Source: a virus (lineage: Duplodnaviria; Heunggongvirae; Uroviricota; Caudoviricetes). Taken from it: DNA of 24,352 nucleotides. A program made the translations under genes and the position numbers. The notes under the pieces were generated by a model. The model did not search any database. It was not told the origin of the DNA and was given only the letters and a program-made list of their open reading frames with translations. Each line of letters opens with the position of its first letter. The stretch's first letter is position 1. The stretch lies in IMG/VR virus record IMGVR_UViG_2548876950_000008; one strand, written 5' to 3'. This document shows, piece by piece, positions 9,089 through 14,245 of the stretch.

Positions 9089-10128
9089 AAAAACCTCTCG
9101 TCACCCGTAATGACATAGCCGAAGCGATCGCCCTGCATACTGCCTGTATGCCGACACGGGAGATCCCCGGCGCAATTGCCAACTATTTCATGATAACCAG
9201 ACGTTTTTATACCCGAACAGATAAGGCTGTGATCAACAAGCTACTGATAGCCGAGATCAGGGATTATTTGATTGAACAAGGACGTCTACGTTACGCAACA
9301 GTGGCAGCAGAAATGAGAAAGGAGGCACATAGAATGACCGGTAATAATTTGAATGTTGAAAAAACAGCACCTGTTACGTCAGCTACGCCAGCACCAGCCG
9401 TGAATATCATCCCCAACACCGGAGACACAATCGACAGCCTGACACTGTTAAAGATGGTCAATGAAGCGCGTAAGTTATGTGGGGAACCAGAGGTTCGGAA
9501 CAACAAATTCATCGAAAAAATACTCGACGAATTAGAAGGTGAGGACGGTTACACAAAAAGTGCAACCGTGCCGCCAGGTGGCGGTACGCCTATGGTTGTC
9601 ATAACCATGACCTACAAACAAGCCCTGCGAGTCGCCGCACGCGAATCAAAAGCCGTCCGCCGTTCGCTGATCGACAAACTGGAAGAATTGCAGCAGGCAA
9701 ACTCCCCTGCCCCATCGATCCCCCAAACATTACCAGAAGCTCTACGCCTGGCTGCCGAGTTGGCAGAACAGAAAATGCAGCTGGAACAACAGCTGGTGGC
9801 CGCAGCCCCTAAAGTCGATTTTGCCGACCGGGTATCAGTGGCCAATGGAATCCTGATCGGGAACTTTGCAAAGGTCGTTGGACTTAAGCAAAACGCCCTT
9901 TTCTCATGGTTGCGCCAGAACGGCATTCTCATGGCTTTTGGTGCGCGCAAAAACGTACCGCGCCAGCAGTACATTAACGCCGGGTATTTCACGGTGAAAG
10001 AAGTGGTGCTGGATGATGAAAATGGCTACCAGATACGGCTGACGCCCCAATTAACGGGTAAAGGCCAGCAGTGGTTAACTCGCAAGCTACTTGATGCTGG
10101 TTTGTTAAAACCAGTAGCAATAGGTTAA
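9085..10128 (+). CDS. ant: antirepressor Ant (347 aa)
   Basis: Position downstream of Op51/c4/icd; C-terminal about 130 aa (PQTLPEALRLAAELAEQK...GKGQQWLTRKLLDAGLL) is a conserved antirepressor C-terminal domain shared with the downstream KilA. Confidence 0.8.
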   Translation: MKKPLVTRNDIAEAIALHTACMPTREIPGAIANYFMITRRFYTRTDKAVINKLLIAEIRDYLIEQGRLRYATVAAEMRKEAHRMTGNNLNVEKTAPVTSATPAPAVNIIPNTGDTIDSLTLLKMVNEARKLCGEPEVRNNKFIEKILDELEGEDGYTKSATVPPGGGTPMVVITMTYKQALRVAARESKAVRRSLIDKLEELQQANSPAPSIPQTLPEALRLAAELAEQKMQLEQQLVAAAPKVDFADRVSVANGILIGNFAKVVGLKQNALFSWLRQNGILMAFGARKNVPRQQYINAGYFTVKEVVLDDENGYQIRLTPQLTGKGQQWLTRKLLDAGLLKPVAIG

Positions 10129-10141
10129 CAAAAGAAAAAAA

Positions 10142-10166
10142 CCTGCCAGCAAACTGGCAGGTTTCT
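10142..10166 (+). terminator. rho-independent terminator after ant (CCTGCCAG-CAAA-CTGGCAGG followed by TTTCT)
   Basis: 8-bp GC-rich stem, 4-nt loop and T-run 14 nt after the ant stop codon. Confidence 0.65.
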
Positions 10167-10206
10167 GAGCAGATCGTCCAACCCGATCTGGATCGGGTCA
10201 GAAAAA

Positions 10207-10223
10207 TTTGCTCTAATAAATTT
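10207..10223 (+). promoter_or_regulatory. C1 repressor operator (Op53-like), TTTGCTCTAATAAATTT
   Basis: 16/17 match to the C1 operator consensus; the surrounding about 30 bp is a near-copy of the Op51 context (8536-8567). Confidence 0.75.
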
Positions 10224-10292
10224 CGTTTTCTAAGTGCAAAGAATCACCATTTCGAGCTGGTGATTGAAGGTTGATGCAAATTTGGAGAAAAA

Positions 10293-11093
10293 ATGCAACA
10301 AACATTCAATGCGGATATGAATATATCAAACCTTCATCAAAATGTCGATCCTTCAACCACTCTGCCCGTTATTTGTGGTGTTGAAATTACGACCGACCGC
10401 GCTGGCCGTTACAACCTTAATGCTCTACACAGAGCGAGCGGACTCGGTGCCCATAAAGCGCCAGCTCAATGGCTAAGAACGCTGTCAGCTAAACAGCTCA
10501 TCGAAGAGCTTGAAAAAGAAACTATGCAGAATTGCATAGTTTCGTTCGAAGGCCGTGGCGGCGGCACTTTTGCCCATGAATTGCTCGCTGTGGAGTACGC
10601 AGGCTGGATTTCTCCCGCGTTTCGGCTGAAGGTAAACCAGACATTTATCGACTATCGAGCTGGAAGATTACAACCTGCTATTCCGCAGAGTCTCCCTGAA
10701 GCTCTCCGTTTGGCTGCCGACCTGGCAGAGCAAAAGCAACGGCTGGAGCAAAAAATGCTTATGGATGCACCTAAAGTCGAATTCGCCGAACGCGTTGCTA
10801 CCGCCAGCGGGGTTCTAATCGGCAACTATGCCAAAGTGCTCGGCCTGGGCCAAAACTATCTCTTCACTTGGTTGCGTGATAACGGAATTCTGATCGCAAC
10901 CGGTGAACGCAGGAACGTCCCCAAACAAGAATACATATCCCGTGGGTACTTCACCCTCAAAGAAACCGTGATCGATACAAGCAATGGAAGCAGGATTTCT
11001 TTCACGACTCGTATAACCGGTAAAGGTCAGCAGTGGCTTATGAAGCGATTGCTTGATGCTGGTGTGCTGGTACCTGTCGCGGCAACGCGCTAA
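10293..11093 (+). CDS. kilA: KilA (KilA-N domain fused to an Ant-type C-terminal domain), 266 aa
   Basis: Position between Op53 and repL; C-terminal half is paralogous to the Ant C-terminus (PQSLPEALRLAADLAEQK...GKGQQWLMKRLLDAGVL). Confidence 0.8.
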   Translation: MQQTFNADMNISNLHQNVDPSTTLPVICGVEITTDRAGRYNLNALHRASGLGAHKAPAQWLRTLSAKQLIEELEKETMQNCIVSFEGRGGGTFAHELLAVEYAGWISPAFRLKVNQTFIDYRAGRLQPAIPQSLPEALRLAADLAEQKQRLEQKMLMDAPKVEFAERVATASGVLIGNYAKVLGLGQNYLFTWLRDNGILIATGERRNVPKQEYISRGYFTLKETVIDTSNGSRISFTTRITGKGQQWLMKRLLDAGVLVPVAATR

Positions 11094-11122
11094 CAAACGT
11101 AGTAAGAACCACCAGCATTGTA

Positions 11123-11968
11123 ATGCTGGCTAAAGTCACTTTCCTGAGCTGTATAACGATGAGCGATTTTACTTTTTCTGGCTATGAATTGGCCTGCTTT
11201 GTAACACACTCCGGTCTATCCCGTAGCGCCGGGCATATCCTGTCGCAATGTGCAAATCTCGCGGCAACAACCAGTGAATACTTCATTCACAAGCCTCACC
11301 GCCTGATCGCGGCAGAAACTGGTTATAGCCAATCAACCGTCGTTCGTGCATTCCGTGAAGCTGTAAACAAAGGAATTCTGTCTGTAGAGATTGTTATCGG
11401 CGATCACCGTGAACGTCGCGCTAACCTGTACCGGTTTACACCATCATTTTTGGCCTTCGCACAACAAGCCAAAAATGCGCTGATTGAAAGCAAATTAAAG
11501 ATCTCTTCAGCGGCAACCAAGGTTAAAGCTGTTCTCGCTAAGACATTGGCTTTATTTAATTTTTTATCCACACCCCCATGTCAAAATGATACCCCCTCCC
11601 CCTGTCAGGATGACGTGGCAATAAAGAATAAGAAGTCACAAGTTAAAAAAACAAAAAGATCAGTTTCCGGCGGTGCCGGAACGACCAGACTCAAAAAATT
11701 GACTTCATGGATCGCTGAGGCAAAAGCAAAGGCTGACAATCTGCGGTTATCCAAAAAACGCGCTCAAAAACATGAGTTCAAGCAGAAAGTAGAGGCGGCA
11801 GCGCGGAAATATGCTTACCTGAAGGACAAGCGTTCTCCTGATATTGGCGGGATATCAAACTTCGATAATCTGCCGCATTGCATGACGGTAAACGAAGCTC
11901 TTAATGCGGTTTTAGCCAAAAATAAAGATAACGAACAATGGGGTATACCGGCAGGATTCAGAGGGTGA
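11123..11968 (+). CDS. repL: lytic replication initiator RepL (281 aa)
   Basis: 281-aa ORF directly after kilA under the Op53 promoter, as in P1; the gene contains an exact DnaA box in an A+T-rich stretch, consistent with an internal oriL. Confidence 0.75.
   Translation: MLAKVTFLSCITMSDFTFSGYELACFVTHSGLSRSAGHILSQCANLAATTSEYFIHKPHRLIAAETGYSQSTVVRAFREAVNKGILSVEIVIGDHRERRANLYRFTPSFLAFAQQAKNALIESKLKISSAATKVKAVLAKTLALFNFLSTPPCQNDTPSPCQDDVAIKNKKSQVKKTKRSVSGGAGTTRLKKLTSWIAEAKAKADNLRLSKKRAQKHEFKQKVEAAARKYAYLKDKRSPDIGGISNFDNLPHCMTVNEALNAVLAKNKDNEQWGIPAGFRG
11540..11600 (+). promoter_or_regulatory. candidate lytic origin (oriL) core inside repL: exact DnaA box TTATCCACA (11567-11575) in an A+T-rich tract
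   Basis: Sequence ttggctttatttaattttttatccacaccccc read directly; P1 oriL is known to lie within repL. Confidence 0.4.
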
Positions 11969-12018
11969 TAGATTGCTCTAATCTGGAGTCACCTGGCGTT
12001 TTCAGTTTGAGGTCGGAG

Positions 12019-12264
12019 ATGCAATCTGATTTTTTACAGTTAGCGATCGCTTTTGCAGGATATGTTTGTATTGGCTTCTGTGTATACATGATCAGCCGAA
12101 AAATGCTTGTCGATATCGACCGCAAAGAACAAGCAGAGGAGATCTTAGTATGGATTTTCTTTGGCGCGGTCTGGCCATTAGGGGTCATGTTTGCTGCAAC
12201 GTTTCTTCTGATGTGGATATTCACCCTTCCAGGTGATTTCTATAGAAAAAAAGCCAGACATTGA
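12019..12264 (+). CDS. small membrane protein, two predicted TM helices (81 aa from the internal ATG)
   Basis: ORF track 11938..12264; the ATG at 12019 has an SD (GAGGTCGGAG-ATG). Hydrophobic segments LAIAFAGYVCIGFCVYMI and VWIFFGAVWPLGVMFAATFLLMWIF. Confidence 0.5.
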   Translation: MQSDFLQLAIAFAGYVCIGFCVYMISRKMLVDIDRKEQAEEILVWIFFGAVWPLGVMFAATFLLMWIFTLPGDFYRKKARH

Positions 12265-12334
12265 TACAATCGCTGCGGGTGCTTGAGGCTATCTGCTTCA
12301 GGCATTACCCGAAAAGCAGATAGAAGAAAGCCCC

Positions 12335-12396
12335 AGATAACATTACGCGTCCTGCAAGACGCTTAACATTAATCTGAGGCCATATCTATGCTTAGC
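12335..12396 (-). ncRNA. sok: candidate Sok-like antisense RNA
   Basis: Minus-strand promoter TTGACC (plus 12427-12432) - 18 nt - TAATCT (plus 12403-12408) would fire antisense across the mok start/SD region. The 3' end is not defined. Confidence 0.35.
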
Positions 12397-12594
12397 ATAC
12401 GTAGATTAGCCTCTTACCGACCAAAAGGTCAAGGAGAAGCAGGCTATGAAGCAGCAAAAAGCGATGTTAATCGCTCTGATCGTCATCTGTTTAACCGTCA
12501 TTGTGACGGCACTGGTAACGAGGAAAGACCTCTGCGAGGTACGAATCCGAACCGGCCAGACGGAGGTCACTGTCTTCACAGCCTACGAATCTGA
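12388..12594 (+). CDS. mok: mok-like overlapping reading frame (68 codons)
   Basis: ORF with SD (GAGG 8 nt upstream) that begins upstream of hok and overlaps it in another frame, the arrangement of mok in hok/sok loci. Confidence 0.45.
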   Translation: MLSIRRLASYRPKGQGEAGYEAAKSDVNRSDRHLFNRHCDGTGNEERPLRGTNPNRPDGGHCLHSLRI

Positions 12595-12601
12595 AAGGTA
12601 A
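12446..12601 (+). CDS. hok: Hok/Gef-family type I toxin (51 aa)
   Basis: Translation MKQQKAMLIALIVICLTVIVTALVTRKDLCEVRIRTGQTEVTVFTAYESER is near-identical in pattern to E. coli Gef/HokC as I recall it (MKQHKAMIVALIVICITAVVAALVTRKDLCEVHIRTGQTEVAVFTAYESE). SD AAGGAG 9 nt upstream. Confidence 0.8.
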   Translation: MKQQKAMLIALIVICLTVIVTALVTRKDLCEVRIRTGQTEVTVFTAYESER

Positions 12602-12920
12602 GAGACCTGGCGGGGAGAGATCCCCGCCACTCTTCGTGTGTCAGGTATCCTCAATGCACCCTTTTCTCCCCAATAGTGTAAAACACAATGAAGTAGAAGG
12701 AGTTATTTCACATCATGCAAAGATTCAGACCATATCTCCCAATAGCCTTCGCGACATGATGACTTTCAGAAATATCTAGCTGTTAACAAAATTCCATACT
12801 TGCTTTGCTAATACCACCTAGATTATATATGGAAAAATACACCTAAAACTTAAACAAATTATATCCACAACAAACATCCATCTATTAGGATTAAAATTAA
12901 TTTAATAATAAATAATACAA

Positions 12921-12948
12921 CACCGGTTCATTTTCTAACAAACCGGTG
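12921..12948 (-). terminator. hairpin (CACCGGTT ... AACCGGTG) followed by an A/T-rich run, 3' of the MazG-like gene
   Basis: 8-bp stem with 12-nt loop, 7 nt downstream of the stop at 12956; minus-strand RNA continues UUGUAUUAUUUAUUAUU. Confidence 0.45.
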
Positions 12949-12955
12949 GGCACCA

Positions 12956-13945
12956 TTATTGGAATAACTTACTGATTACATTAAAAACATTAAGGGCGTT
13001 ACTTGCCACACTAGACATCTTAGCTGAATTTTTTTCGATTGAGTCAAGAACACTTTCGACTTCCGATAAAGTTCTTCTGCTATCTGCATCTTTTCCTGAG
13101 TCTATCGCATCTTTAATTGCAGATATAGCAGACTCTAAATTCTCCTTAAACTCACCTGTCGTCTCATCCTTCAAGAGAAGTTCTAACTCTTGTTTAAGTT
13201 TTTCCAATGATGCTCTTTTCTCATCAGTTTTACTAATCTTCCCTGAATAACTGACACAAACACATTCTCTTTTATTGCAGACAGGACAACCATTTAGATA
13301 ATAACTTTCAAACGCCTCGCCAAGATCATCATCTTTAAAAATAATCCCCCATAAAGAAAACAACCAAGCATATATATCAGCACACTCTTCATGAAGATTT
13401 TCTTTGTTGTAATTTTTATCTTCAATTGATTTAGCATAAGCCTCTTGCAACTCACCCAACTCTTCGAATAACCTGGATGAATGATAAAACCCACCAAAAG
13501 TAGACCAAATGGTTCTATTCGACGGATAGATGTCATTAATCATTCGTGGCGCATAAGGCGGAAATTGCATAGGTTTAATAGCGTTATATTTATTGAAAAG
13601 CTCATCTTTAATTCCTTTTGCGCTTCTTATTTTCTCTGGCTTTCTGTGTGTTTGAGAACAGGAACAAGGCGCCCCTAAGCAATAAGGACAGCAACTAGGA
13701 AATTTTTTATAAAATGCTTCCTGTGGTTGTATTTCAAGTTTATCACAGATTGCAAAAAGCCAAGACAATGCTTCTATATAGGTATTTTTTAATAATTCTT
13801 TATCCTGATTACCATCACGAATAAACTCACGTGTTAAATAAGCTGTTTTCCTTGTCAGATAAGAGTACATATACTCAAATGATTTTTCTTCATTTTTTTT
13901 GCTGTAAATACCTACAATAATATTGCTCATATCATTGATACGTAA
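12956..13945 (-). CDS. tandem MazG-like (all-alpha NTP pyrophosphohydrolase-like) plus zinc-ribbon protein (329 aa from the SD-backed ATG)
   Basis: ORF track 12956..14026; the SD-backed start is AAGAGGAATGTC-ATG at 13945 (MLRINDMSN...). Two internal repeats each carry a MazG-like helix (EELGELQEAYAKS ... EECADIYAWLFSLWG; ...YIEALSWLFAICDKLE) followed by a Cys cluster (CCPYCLGAPCSCS; CPVCNKRECVCVS). A+T-rich. Confidence 0.7.
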   Translation of the reverse strand, partial: LRINDMSNIIVGIYSKKNEEKSFEYMYSYLTRKTAYLTREFIRDGNQDKELLKNTYIEALSWLFAICDKLEIQPQEAFYKKFPSCCPYCLGAPCSCSQTHRKPEKIRSAKGIKDELFNKYNAIKPMQFPPYAPRMINDIYPSNRTIWSTFGGFYHSSRLFEELGELQEAYAKSIEDKNYNKENLHEECADIYAWLFSLWGIIFKDDDLGEAFESYYLNGCPVCNKRECVCVSYSGKISKTDEKRASLEKLKQELELLLKDETTGEFKENLESAISAIKDAIDSGKDADSRRTLSEVESVLDSIEKNSAKMSSVASNALNVFNVISKLFQ

Positions 13946-14196
13946 CATGACATTCCTCTTAAATAAGCCAATACTTCCTAGAACCATATATGCTTCGACA
14001 AAGATTAACGGACATCTTGCCTTCACAAACTTTGACGCTACATAAATTTAAGCATGTGCATACTAAATATTTAAGGTAGAAAAGTATAGGAGTATTTATT
14101 AATAGGTAACTGTTAGTTTACACTCACTTCATACCAGAGTATTGACAAGATGTTATTTTACTCTATTCGCTAGGCGGTGGAATGCGGTTGTATCAA

Positions 14197-14214
14197 GGGG
14201 AGGTAAACCTCCCC
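14197..14214 (-). terminator. GC hairpin (GGGGAGG-TAAA-CCTCCCC) 3' of the late structural operon
   Basis: Perfect 7-bp stem about 30 nt downstream of the 14246 stop; no strong U-run, so it may be a stabilising 3' hairpin or a weak terminator. Confidence 0.45.
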
Positions 14215-14245
14215 CGAAGAAGATTAAAAGTACAAGGGATAACAC

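Follow-up and report, generated by a model that had tools for sequence, protein, structure and literature searches.

What does an A+T-rich gene do in a phage-plasmid lineage most members of which lack it? The question is raised by a stretch of 24,352 nucleotides (IMG/VR record IMGVR_UViG_2548876950_000008, Caudoviricetes), called the window below, which is a P1-like (IncY, Punavirus) phage-plasmid and in which a gene for a MazG-like protein lies between hokD and bplB. Our computational analysis indicates that this protein, judged from its sequence, is a single-chain pseudo-heterodimer with a live C-terminal lobe and a dead N-terminal MazG lobe, and that the gene, together with its upstream region and its terminator, is a horizontally mobile moron. 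The cassette gene belongs to no curated defence family, yet by sequence, motif and fold its product is a member of the all-alpha nucleoside triphosphate (NTP) pyrophosphohydrolase superfamily. The structural interpretation is supported, and the evidence on function leans towards immunity. Directly supported by the data are the structure, rarity and mobility of the cassette, the homology in fold and sequence, the one-sided conservation of the catalytic residues, and the domain fusions and partner genes of the relatives.

The pseudo-heterodimer is suggested by an internal duplication, by matches of both halves to the same solved structure and by conservation of the catalytic residues on one side only. 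Alignment of profiles of the N-terminal half (residues 1-126) and the C-terminal half (residues 127-240) gave an hhalign probability of 93.7% (E 1.9e-7), which was corroborated by half-specific hidden Markov models that match the opposite half in nearly every family member; an 'IY..N' motif, a helix with a conserved tryptophan (SW or AW) and a terminal C-P-x-C-x4-C-x-C cluster are common to both. When broader alignments of each half were searched independently, the N-half matched the MazG-like structure 1VMG over 77 residues (E 8.7e-11) and the C-half matched it with E 2e-8. The C-half profile also matches iMazG (2Q73, 7e-7), 5IE9 (3e-5) and YpjD (2GTA, 1.6e-4) and, more weakly, HisE (1YVW, 1.8e-3) and DCTPP1/RS21-C6 (~1e-2), and a match to phrog_2245, annotated as nucleoside triphosphate pyrophosphohydrolase, was obtained as well (E 4e-6). 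The metal motif EExxE...ExxD of the C-half does not vary within the close family, and its conservation across 175 representatives is ~95%; the complete pentad E162/E163/E166/E188/D191 is intact in 186 of ~220 family sequences, fusion proteins included. In the N-half the acidic metal ligands are replaced across the family, mostly by arginine or lysine (positions 40 and 59), and the motif is absent. Profile homology, the metal motif of the C-half and a four-helix-bundle fold thus all place the protein among the all-alpha NTP pyrophosphohydrolases. These results bear out a reading made earlier from the letters alone (the sequence-only reading), which had proposed the duplication, the MazG-like fold, a four-cysteine cluster in each half and a first repeat short of acidic residues.

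All eight cysteines, in the two invariant clusters CPYC-x4-CSC and CPVC-x4-CVC, are ~100% conserved. The sequence-only reading had called them zinc ribbons, a label not strictly supported by the C-x2-C-x4-C-x-C spacing and the loops without predicted beta-strands (pLDDT, the confidence measure of the structure model, ~55); as modelled, each site looks more like a short zinc knuckle. Similarly, the tail that had been taken for a coiled coil comes out as a four-helix bundle in the model. It is kept in the 330-residue forms and has GGDEF in its place in some distant relatives, and it showed no similarity to known effectors.

The short MazG-like enzymes (SSO3215/1VMG, iMazG 2Q73, YpjD 2GTA, DCTPP1/RS21-C6 and HisE) have the four-helix-bundle domain that is common to both halves, and they share the EExxE...ExxD motif with the C-half. 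They are, however, subunits of ~100 amino acids (aa), which assemble into symmetric homo-oligomers whose active sites are equivalent, whereas the window protein is a fused pair of which the first member is inactivated, with an invariant C-x2-C-x4-C-x-C cluster per domain, the 'IY..N' motif and a helical tail of 90 aa as extras. Profile alignments to the solved MazG-like structures stop before the Cys clusters, and we know of no solved MazG-like relative with the clusters, the 'IY..N' motif or the tail. Dimeric dUTPases and T4 gp56-type dCTPases (5MYD, 1W2Y) share 7-8% identity with the window protein, with Foldseek scores that are not significant; there is no sequence-level match of the protein to dUTPase families, and the known enzymes lack zinc sites. 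Escherichia coli MazG (3CRA), with two MazG domains in one polypeptide and functional asymmetry between them, shares the tandem layout and is found among the weak, non-significant Foldseek and profile matches (E 0.7 and 2.3), but it has neither Cys clusters nor tail, and its gene is chromosomal and linked to mazEF, not a mobile moron.

The closest relatives in structure and sequence are house-cleaning enzymes acting on deoxynucleoside triphosphates (dNTPs), namely iMazG, DCTPP1, YpjD and dimeric dUTPases, which favours an explanation by benefit to the phage itself: the enzyme may clear dUTP, dCTP, other unwanted nucleotides or (p)ppGpp and thus aid replication of its carrier. Phage dUTPases, the T4 gp56 dCTPase and cyanophage MazG are thought to aid the replication of their own elements, and phage-encoded MazG-like and Dut genes are common. 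The weak top matches in BFVD, which are phage NTP pyrophosphohydrolase-like proteins, and one homologue that adjoins nrdAB point in the same direction. We nevertheless consider such housekeeping unlikely, as the carriers of the gene and the company it keeps, described below, fit poorly with it.

The gene occupies a cassette of 34% G+C, against 46.7% in the remainder of the window, and the local gene order is kilA, repL, hokD, the MazG-like gene, bplB, pmgG, 21, 22, 23, with a Pfam match to HOK_GEF (E 2e-22) for the hokD flank. The single-gene island and its flanks were thus rightly described in the sequence-only reading, and the island proves to be an insertion relative to phage phi456 and most P1-like plasmids, in which hok and bplB are spaced by ~100 bp; its boundaries were set by eye from the alignment with phi456. 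Among 680 matching P1-like plasmids, 17 carry the cassette (~2.5%) and ~97% lack it, and a survey of 5,426 complete E. coli genomes found the gene in 19, plasmid-borne every time and with at least 99.7% identity. The interval between repL and bplB holds rlfA-rlfB-pmgF in P1 (L065), hok only in phi456 (L002) and most plasmids, and hok plus the MazG-like cassette in the window (11969-14245); because P1 has its own genes there, we regard the gap as a variable accessory slot. Insertion amid conserved phage genes, deviant composition, a terminator and an upstream region of its own and sporadic distribution all mark the cassette as a moron. No convincing terminal direct or inverted repeats and no convincing transposon signature were found at the insert boundaries. 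Near the gene there is no P1 C1 operator; one-mismatch matches to the operator consensus occur in the window solely at 8536-8552 and 10207-10223 (+ strand), with ~0.2 expected by chance. The hok/sok locus is itself listed as a phage-exclusion locus. We rejected hok and the MazG-like gene as a single unit, given that most P1-like plasmids matching the region have hok but not the gene.

A word-indexed search for relatives returned only 28 clusters, all of 329-378 aa, whereas an exhaustive profile search returned 993 representatives at E<1e-3, of which 101 passed E<1e-30. Homologues at close and intermediate distance are all A+T-rich genes carried as cargo by mobile elements. In a P2-like phage, a homologue of 79% identity is flanked by gpS and gpV, and others are found at P2-like prophage ends, among the early genes of a lambdoid prophage (with a DNA methylase gene on one side and antirepressor/Q antiterminator genes on the other), on ~8.5-kb Rep3/MobA plasmids, on 16 IMG/VR viral contigs and in small chromosomal islets. 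The P1-like and P2-like copies have in common, besides the coding region and the terminator hairpin, ~100 nt of partly conserved upstream sequence, and behind the P2-like copy, too, there is a hairpin of equivalent structure. An 8-kb filamentous prophage of Vibrio cyclitrophicus (L048, PQ189347.1 6649-7641) carries a 29%-identical homologue, which is an accessory gene between a gene-I-like assembly gene and a regulator, in the slot that toxin genes occupy in CTXphi. In nine of the ten other contexts checked the gene lies 10-22 G+C points under its flanks, and in the Vibrio inovirus 3.7 points under. This pattern argues against housekeeping: so rare a gene among P1-like plasmids, at unrelated sites in four phage types and travelling with its own terminator and upstream region, is unlike a replication-module gene, and filamentous phages and 8-kb plasmids have little need of pool sanitation. 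As for the homologue next to nrdAB, P0028 (L012 3155-9029, chromosomal) lies immediately downstream of nrdA and nrdB, which encode ribonucleotide reductase, and is followed by a gene that, from its translated open reading frame (ORF), is putatively REP-associated tyrosine transposase-like; the connection with nucleotide metabolism may be chance.

Further evidence comes from what the core is joined to. In a sister clade (P0011-P0021, ~53% identical) the gene is always followed by that of a 244-248-aa protein with N- and C-terminal transmembrane (TM) segments. This 2-TM partner forms a family of only 16 clusters and stands directly after the MazG-like gene at every locus examined. The partner loci include L007:9080-9826, L003:9068-9805, L011:9077-9823 and L066-L071, and carriers of the pair are the ends of P2-like prophages, a lambdoid prophage and small Rep3/MobA plasmids. 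The partner has no Pfam match and nothing significant in PADLOC, where the best match was AbiEii for one of two partners (E 0.005), and no homology was found between it and the tail of the window protein. Across 44 loci, no conserved operon partner other than this protein of one sister clade was found. In distant relatives, fusion partners of this core are TIR (at least nine, at either terminus), cytidine/dCMP deaminase (five), Ser/Thr kinase (three), GGDEF, CHAT protease and PNP_UDP_1 phosphorylase domains, and the catalytic pentad is nearly always intact in the fusion proteins. Some neighbours of distant relatives match defence models (restriction-modification, GajA/PtuA, E1-E2 in PADLOC's naming, MADS and TIR), and housekeeping neighbours occur as well. 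The TIR and CHAT fusions and the pairing with the 2-TM protein are again hard to reconcile with housekeeping.

Such associations could also mean that the core is not an effector at all but a nucleotide-binding and nucleotide-hydrolysing input module, which would report a phage-derived or abnormal nucleotide to the fused TIR, CHAT, PNP, deaminase, kinase or GGDEF domain or to the 2-TM partner and, in the P1 form, to the tail or a host protein, by a logic that we liken to that of a STAND NTPase or a sensor domain. In favour of this, the one constant core is combined with a range of output domains that exclude one another and may stand at the N- or the C-terminal end, and the 2-TM partner of the sister clade resembles an effector. 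The GGDEF-fused relatives (L037, L030, L040, L032, L026 and L035; ~10001-11300 each) retain [G/S]GDEF and the RxxD I-site as ordinary sensor-cyclases do, and therefore look like active cyclases with the MazG-Zn core as N-terminal input. Moreover, about eight representatives (P0109, P0116, P0121, P0122, P0132, P0135, P0146 and P0111) have charge-swapped catalytic residues (REKDD, KRRDD etc.) and keep all eight cysteines; their sequences suggest catalytically dead derivatives with a retained scaffold function, that is, a non-catalytic role of the scaffold. On the other hand, a pure ligand sensor would not need a catalytic pentad that is conserved to such a degree, fusions included, and the solo form has no recognisable output domain, its tail being unlike the 2-TM partner or any known effector. 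On balance an input module of this kind seems improbable to us. In a wider proposal, the tandem MazG-Zn core would be an unrecognised immune sensor-switch, and the whole a new, widespread single-protein anti-phage system traded by temperate phages. Here a pseudo-heterodimeric NTP pyrophosphatase would hydrolyse a phage-derived or aberrant (d)NTP and thereby detect it, and detection would be coupled to interchangeable outputs, namely the fused domains listed above or the 2-TM protein, the P1, P2 and inovirus form using its own helical tail. This we regard as doubtful.

Our own preference, which we hold tentatively, is for nucleotide-targeting immunity or exclusion that serves the lysogen, with hydrolysis itself as the effector step. 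An anti-phage function is thought likeliest because the relatives ride temperate phages and fuse to immune effector domains. We infer enzyme activity, substrate, expression in the lysogen and anti-phage role as follows. The gene would be expressed from the prophage, and the C-half would bind a divalent metal and an NTP or dNTP and cleave the alpha-beta bond like the characterised MazG-like enzymes. On superinfection, the single live site would hydrolyse a (d)NTP, whether canonical, phage-specific or aberrant, to monophosphate and pyrophosphate, and this hydrolysis may starve or poison the replication of the incoming phage so that the lysogen is protected. The dead lobe may complete or regulate the pocket, and with the zinc knuckles and the tail it may serve substrate selection, regulation or oligomerisation.

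The sequence-only reading had proposed either defence or counter-defence. Of these, defence or immune signalling is favoured at the family level by the TIR, CHAT, PNP, deaminase, kinase and GGDEF fusions, by the existence of a 2-TM partner and by the way temperate elements carry the gene, as a moron. In counter-defence, the phage-plasmid would turn the enzyme against nucleotides of host immunity (signalling molecules or the NTPs from which they are made), destroying or pre-empting them, or would rid the cell of toxic nucleotide analogues produced by host defences, viperin-type chain terminators for example; a nucleotide-acting accessory gene borne by phages, in a cassette as rare and mobile as many anti-defence genes, would suit such a role, and immune products of the ddhCTP type are chemically plausible substrates for MazG. 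The cleavage of cyclic oligonucleotides is chemically unlikely for this fold, however: the bond cut by MazG-type enzymes is the alpha-beta phosphoanhydride of an NTP, and they do not attack the phosphodiester linkages found in cyclic oligonucleotides. The chromosomal, non-phage TIR, CHAT, PNP and deaminase fusions and the 2-TM partner fit host-side immunity rather than anti-immunity, and carriage by plasmids and an inovirus argues against counter-defence in the lytic cycle. Counter-defence thus appears very unlikely.

Several observations weigh against immunity and against the assignment that underlies it. The window protein scores 14.5 bits (E 0.045) with Pfam MazG (PF03819), below the gathering threshold of 22 bits, nothing in NCBIfam or Pfam exceeds curated thresholds for it, and Foldseek searches of PDB and BFVD returned nothing significant; the Pfam threshold is passed by the relatives P0142 (27.1 bits) and P0159 (29.1 bits), and two close homologues have a precomputed PF03819 match. 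PADLOC-DB v2.0 gave no defence model for the window protein, only the coiled-coil-type LmuB (E 0.018), and no matches for three homologues. The window holds neither the 2-TM partner nor a remnant of it, and the solo P1 form has no fused effector either. The relatives that bear fusions are only ~25-35% identical, and function may therefore have diverged; GGDEF and kinase fusions are equally typical of ordinary signal transduction, and the signal from defence neighbours is semi-quantitative only. In addition, a sigma-70 scan of the 170 nt upstream found no convincing promoter and a number of candidates not above that in shuffled sequences, so that expression in the lysogen is only assumed.

Among established systems, the dCTP deaminase, dGTPase and PUA-Calcineurin-HAD defences resemble the proposed logic in that removal of (d)NTPs aborts phage replication, and the deaminase-MazG fusions within the family of the window protein echo such nucleotide-depleting defences. 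The window protein itself, however, is not homologous to the defence proteins of the dCTP-deaminase or dGTPase type, and neither a PUA nor a HAD partner accompanies it. A MazG-like domain has been predicted, not validated, as a dNTP-targeting effector in rare PUA-HAD systems (bioRxiv 10.64898/2026.01.15.699771), and the 'MazG + MazG-C kinase' system of DefensePredictor is likewise an unvalidated prediction of a MazG NTP pyrophosphohydrolase domain in defence, which differs in architecture and in its neighbourhood with MazG-C kinase, NMAD and UDG partners (PMC13092281). The part of the supplementary text of PMC13092281 that was available does not contain WP_000944483, the RefSeq entry for the window protein. 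In the literature, we found no description of proteins with the tandem MazG-Zn architecture, of their carriage by phages or of their fusions, and no validated defence system with this architecture.

The features of the locus are collected in Table 1. The sequence-only reading had taken 12956-14026 as the gene; this frame is present as the maximal ORF (GTG start, 356 aa), but the gene is likely to be shorter. The start codon is probably the ATG at 13948, judging from the agreement of three indications, namely an AAGAGG Shine-Dalgarno sequence 6 nt upstream, the annotation WP_000944483.1 ('MazG-like family protein') of RefSeq/PGAP, which is the only public one and equals exactly the 330-aa frame, and the homologues, every one of which begins at the Met corresponding to 13948. 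Both hairpins that had been described as bracketing the gene exist. The one at 12921-12948 (-18.8 kcal/mol, z -4.3) is predicted to be a good intrinsic terminator of the MazG-like gene. The one at 14197-14214 is the terminator of bplB and does not bracket the gene's own transcript; it arrived with the insert, and phi456 has a different terminator after bplB at this place (AAAAAGCTCCCGAAGGAGCTTT at L002 4075-4098, compared with GGGGAGGTAAACCTCCCC in the window). As the terminator hairpin of bplB was swapped by the insertion, the recombination junction lies inside the old terminator region. A 47-aa ORF at 12636-12779 has no family match and was treated as non-coding; the downstream DNA around it is poorly conserved with the P2-like copy.

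Table 1. Features of the MazG-like gene and its cassette in the window (coordinates of the whole stretch).
Feature	Position	Strand	Remarks
Inserted A+T-rich cassette	~12676-14226	.	~1.55 kb, 34% G+C; between hokD and bplB
Probable coding sequence	12956-13948	-	330 aa + stop; ATG start; same extent as RefSeq WP_000944483.1
In-frame upstream extension (GTG), probably untranslated	13949-14026	-	includes AAGAGG ribosome-binding site at 13955-13960
A+T-rich non-coding upstream region	14027-14196	-	promoter presumed here, not confidently located
N-terminal MazG-like pseudo-domain	13703-13939	-	aa 4-82; 1VMG E 8.7e-11
First Cys4 cluster, CPYCLGAPCSC	13658-13690	-	aa 87-97; ~99-100% conserved, 175 representatives
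C-terminal MazG-like catalytic domain	13301-13552	-	aa 133-216; profile matches to solved members
EELGE, metal-binding motif part 1	13451-13465	-	E162, E163, E166
ECAD, metal-binding motif part 2	13376-13387	-	E188, D191
Second Cys4 cluster, CPVCNKRECVC	13256-13288	-	aa 221-231; 100% conserved
C-terminal helical-bundle tail, ~90 aa	12959-13228	-	four predicted helices, aa 241-329; pLDDT 58-85
Terminator-like hairpin	12921-12948	-	8 nt past stop codon, then U-rich tail
GC-rich hairpin GGGGAGGU..ACCUCCCC	14197-14214	-	downstream of bplB; 8-bp stem, z -2.6

Elsewhere in the window a second A+T-rich island (6182-8466, minus strand, 34-40% G+C) codes for a protein of 394 aa, with a bacterial SH3 domain at its C-terminus, and for two further proteins of ~170 aa, the hydrophobic N-termini of which resemble signal peptides.

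Should the protein turn out to be a plain house-cleaning dNTPase, the gain would be a modest improvement of annotation. An asymmetric tandem of a live and a dead lobe with invariant zinc sites is also of enzymological interest. If hydrolysis is indeed the effector step, MazG-type pyrophosphohydrolysis would be a third enzymatic route of nucleotide-based phage immunity beside dCTP deamination and dGTP triphosphohydrolysis; alternatively, the core would be a new kind of input module, one that senses nucleotides on behalf of effectors of the TIR, CHAT, PNP and kinase types. An anti-phage role would make this small (330 aa) single gene a readily testable candidate, and it would mean that the same cassette is exchanged among P1-like phage-plasmids and P2-like, lambdoid and filamentous phages.

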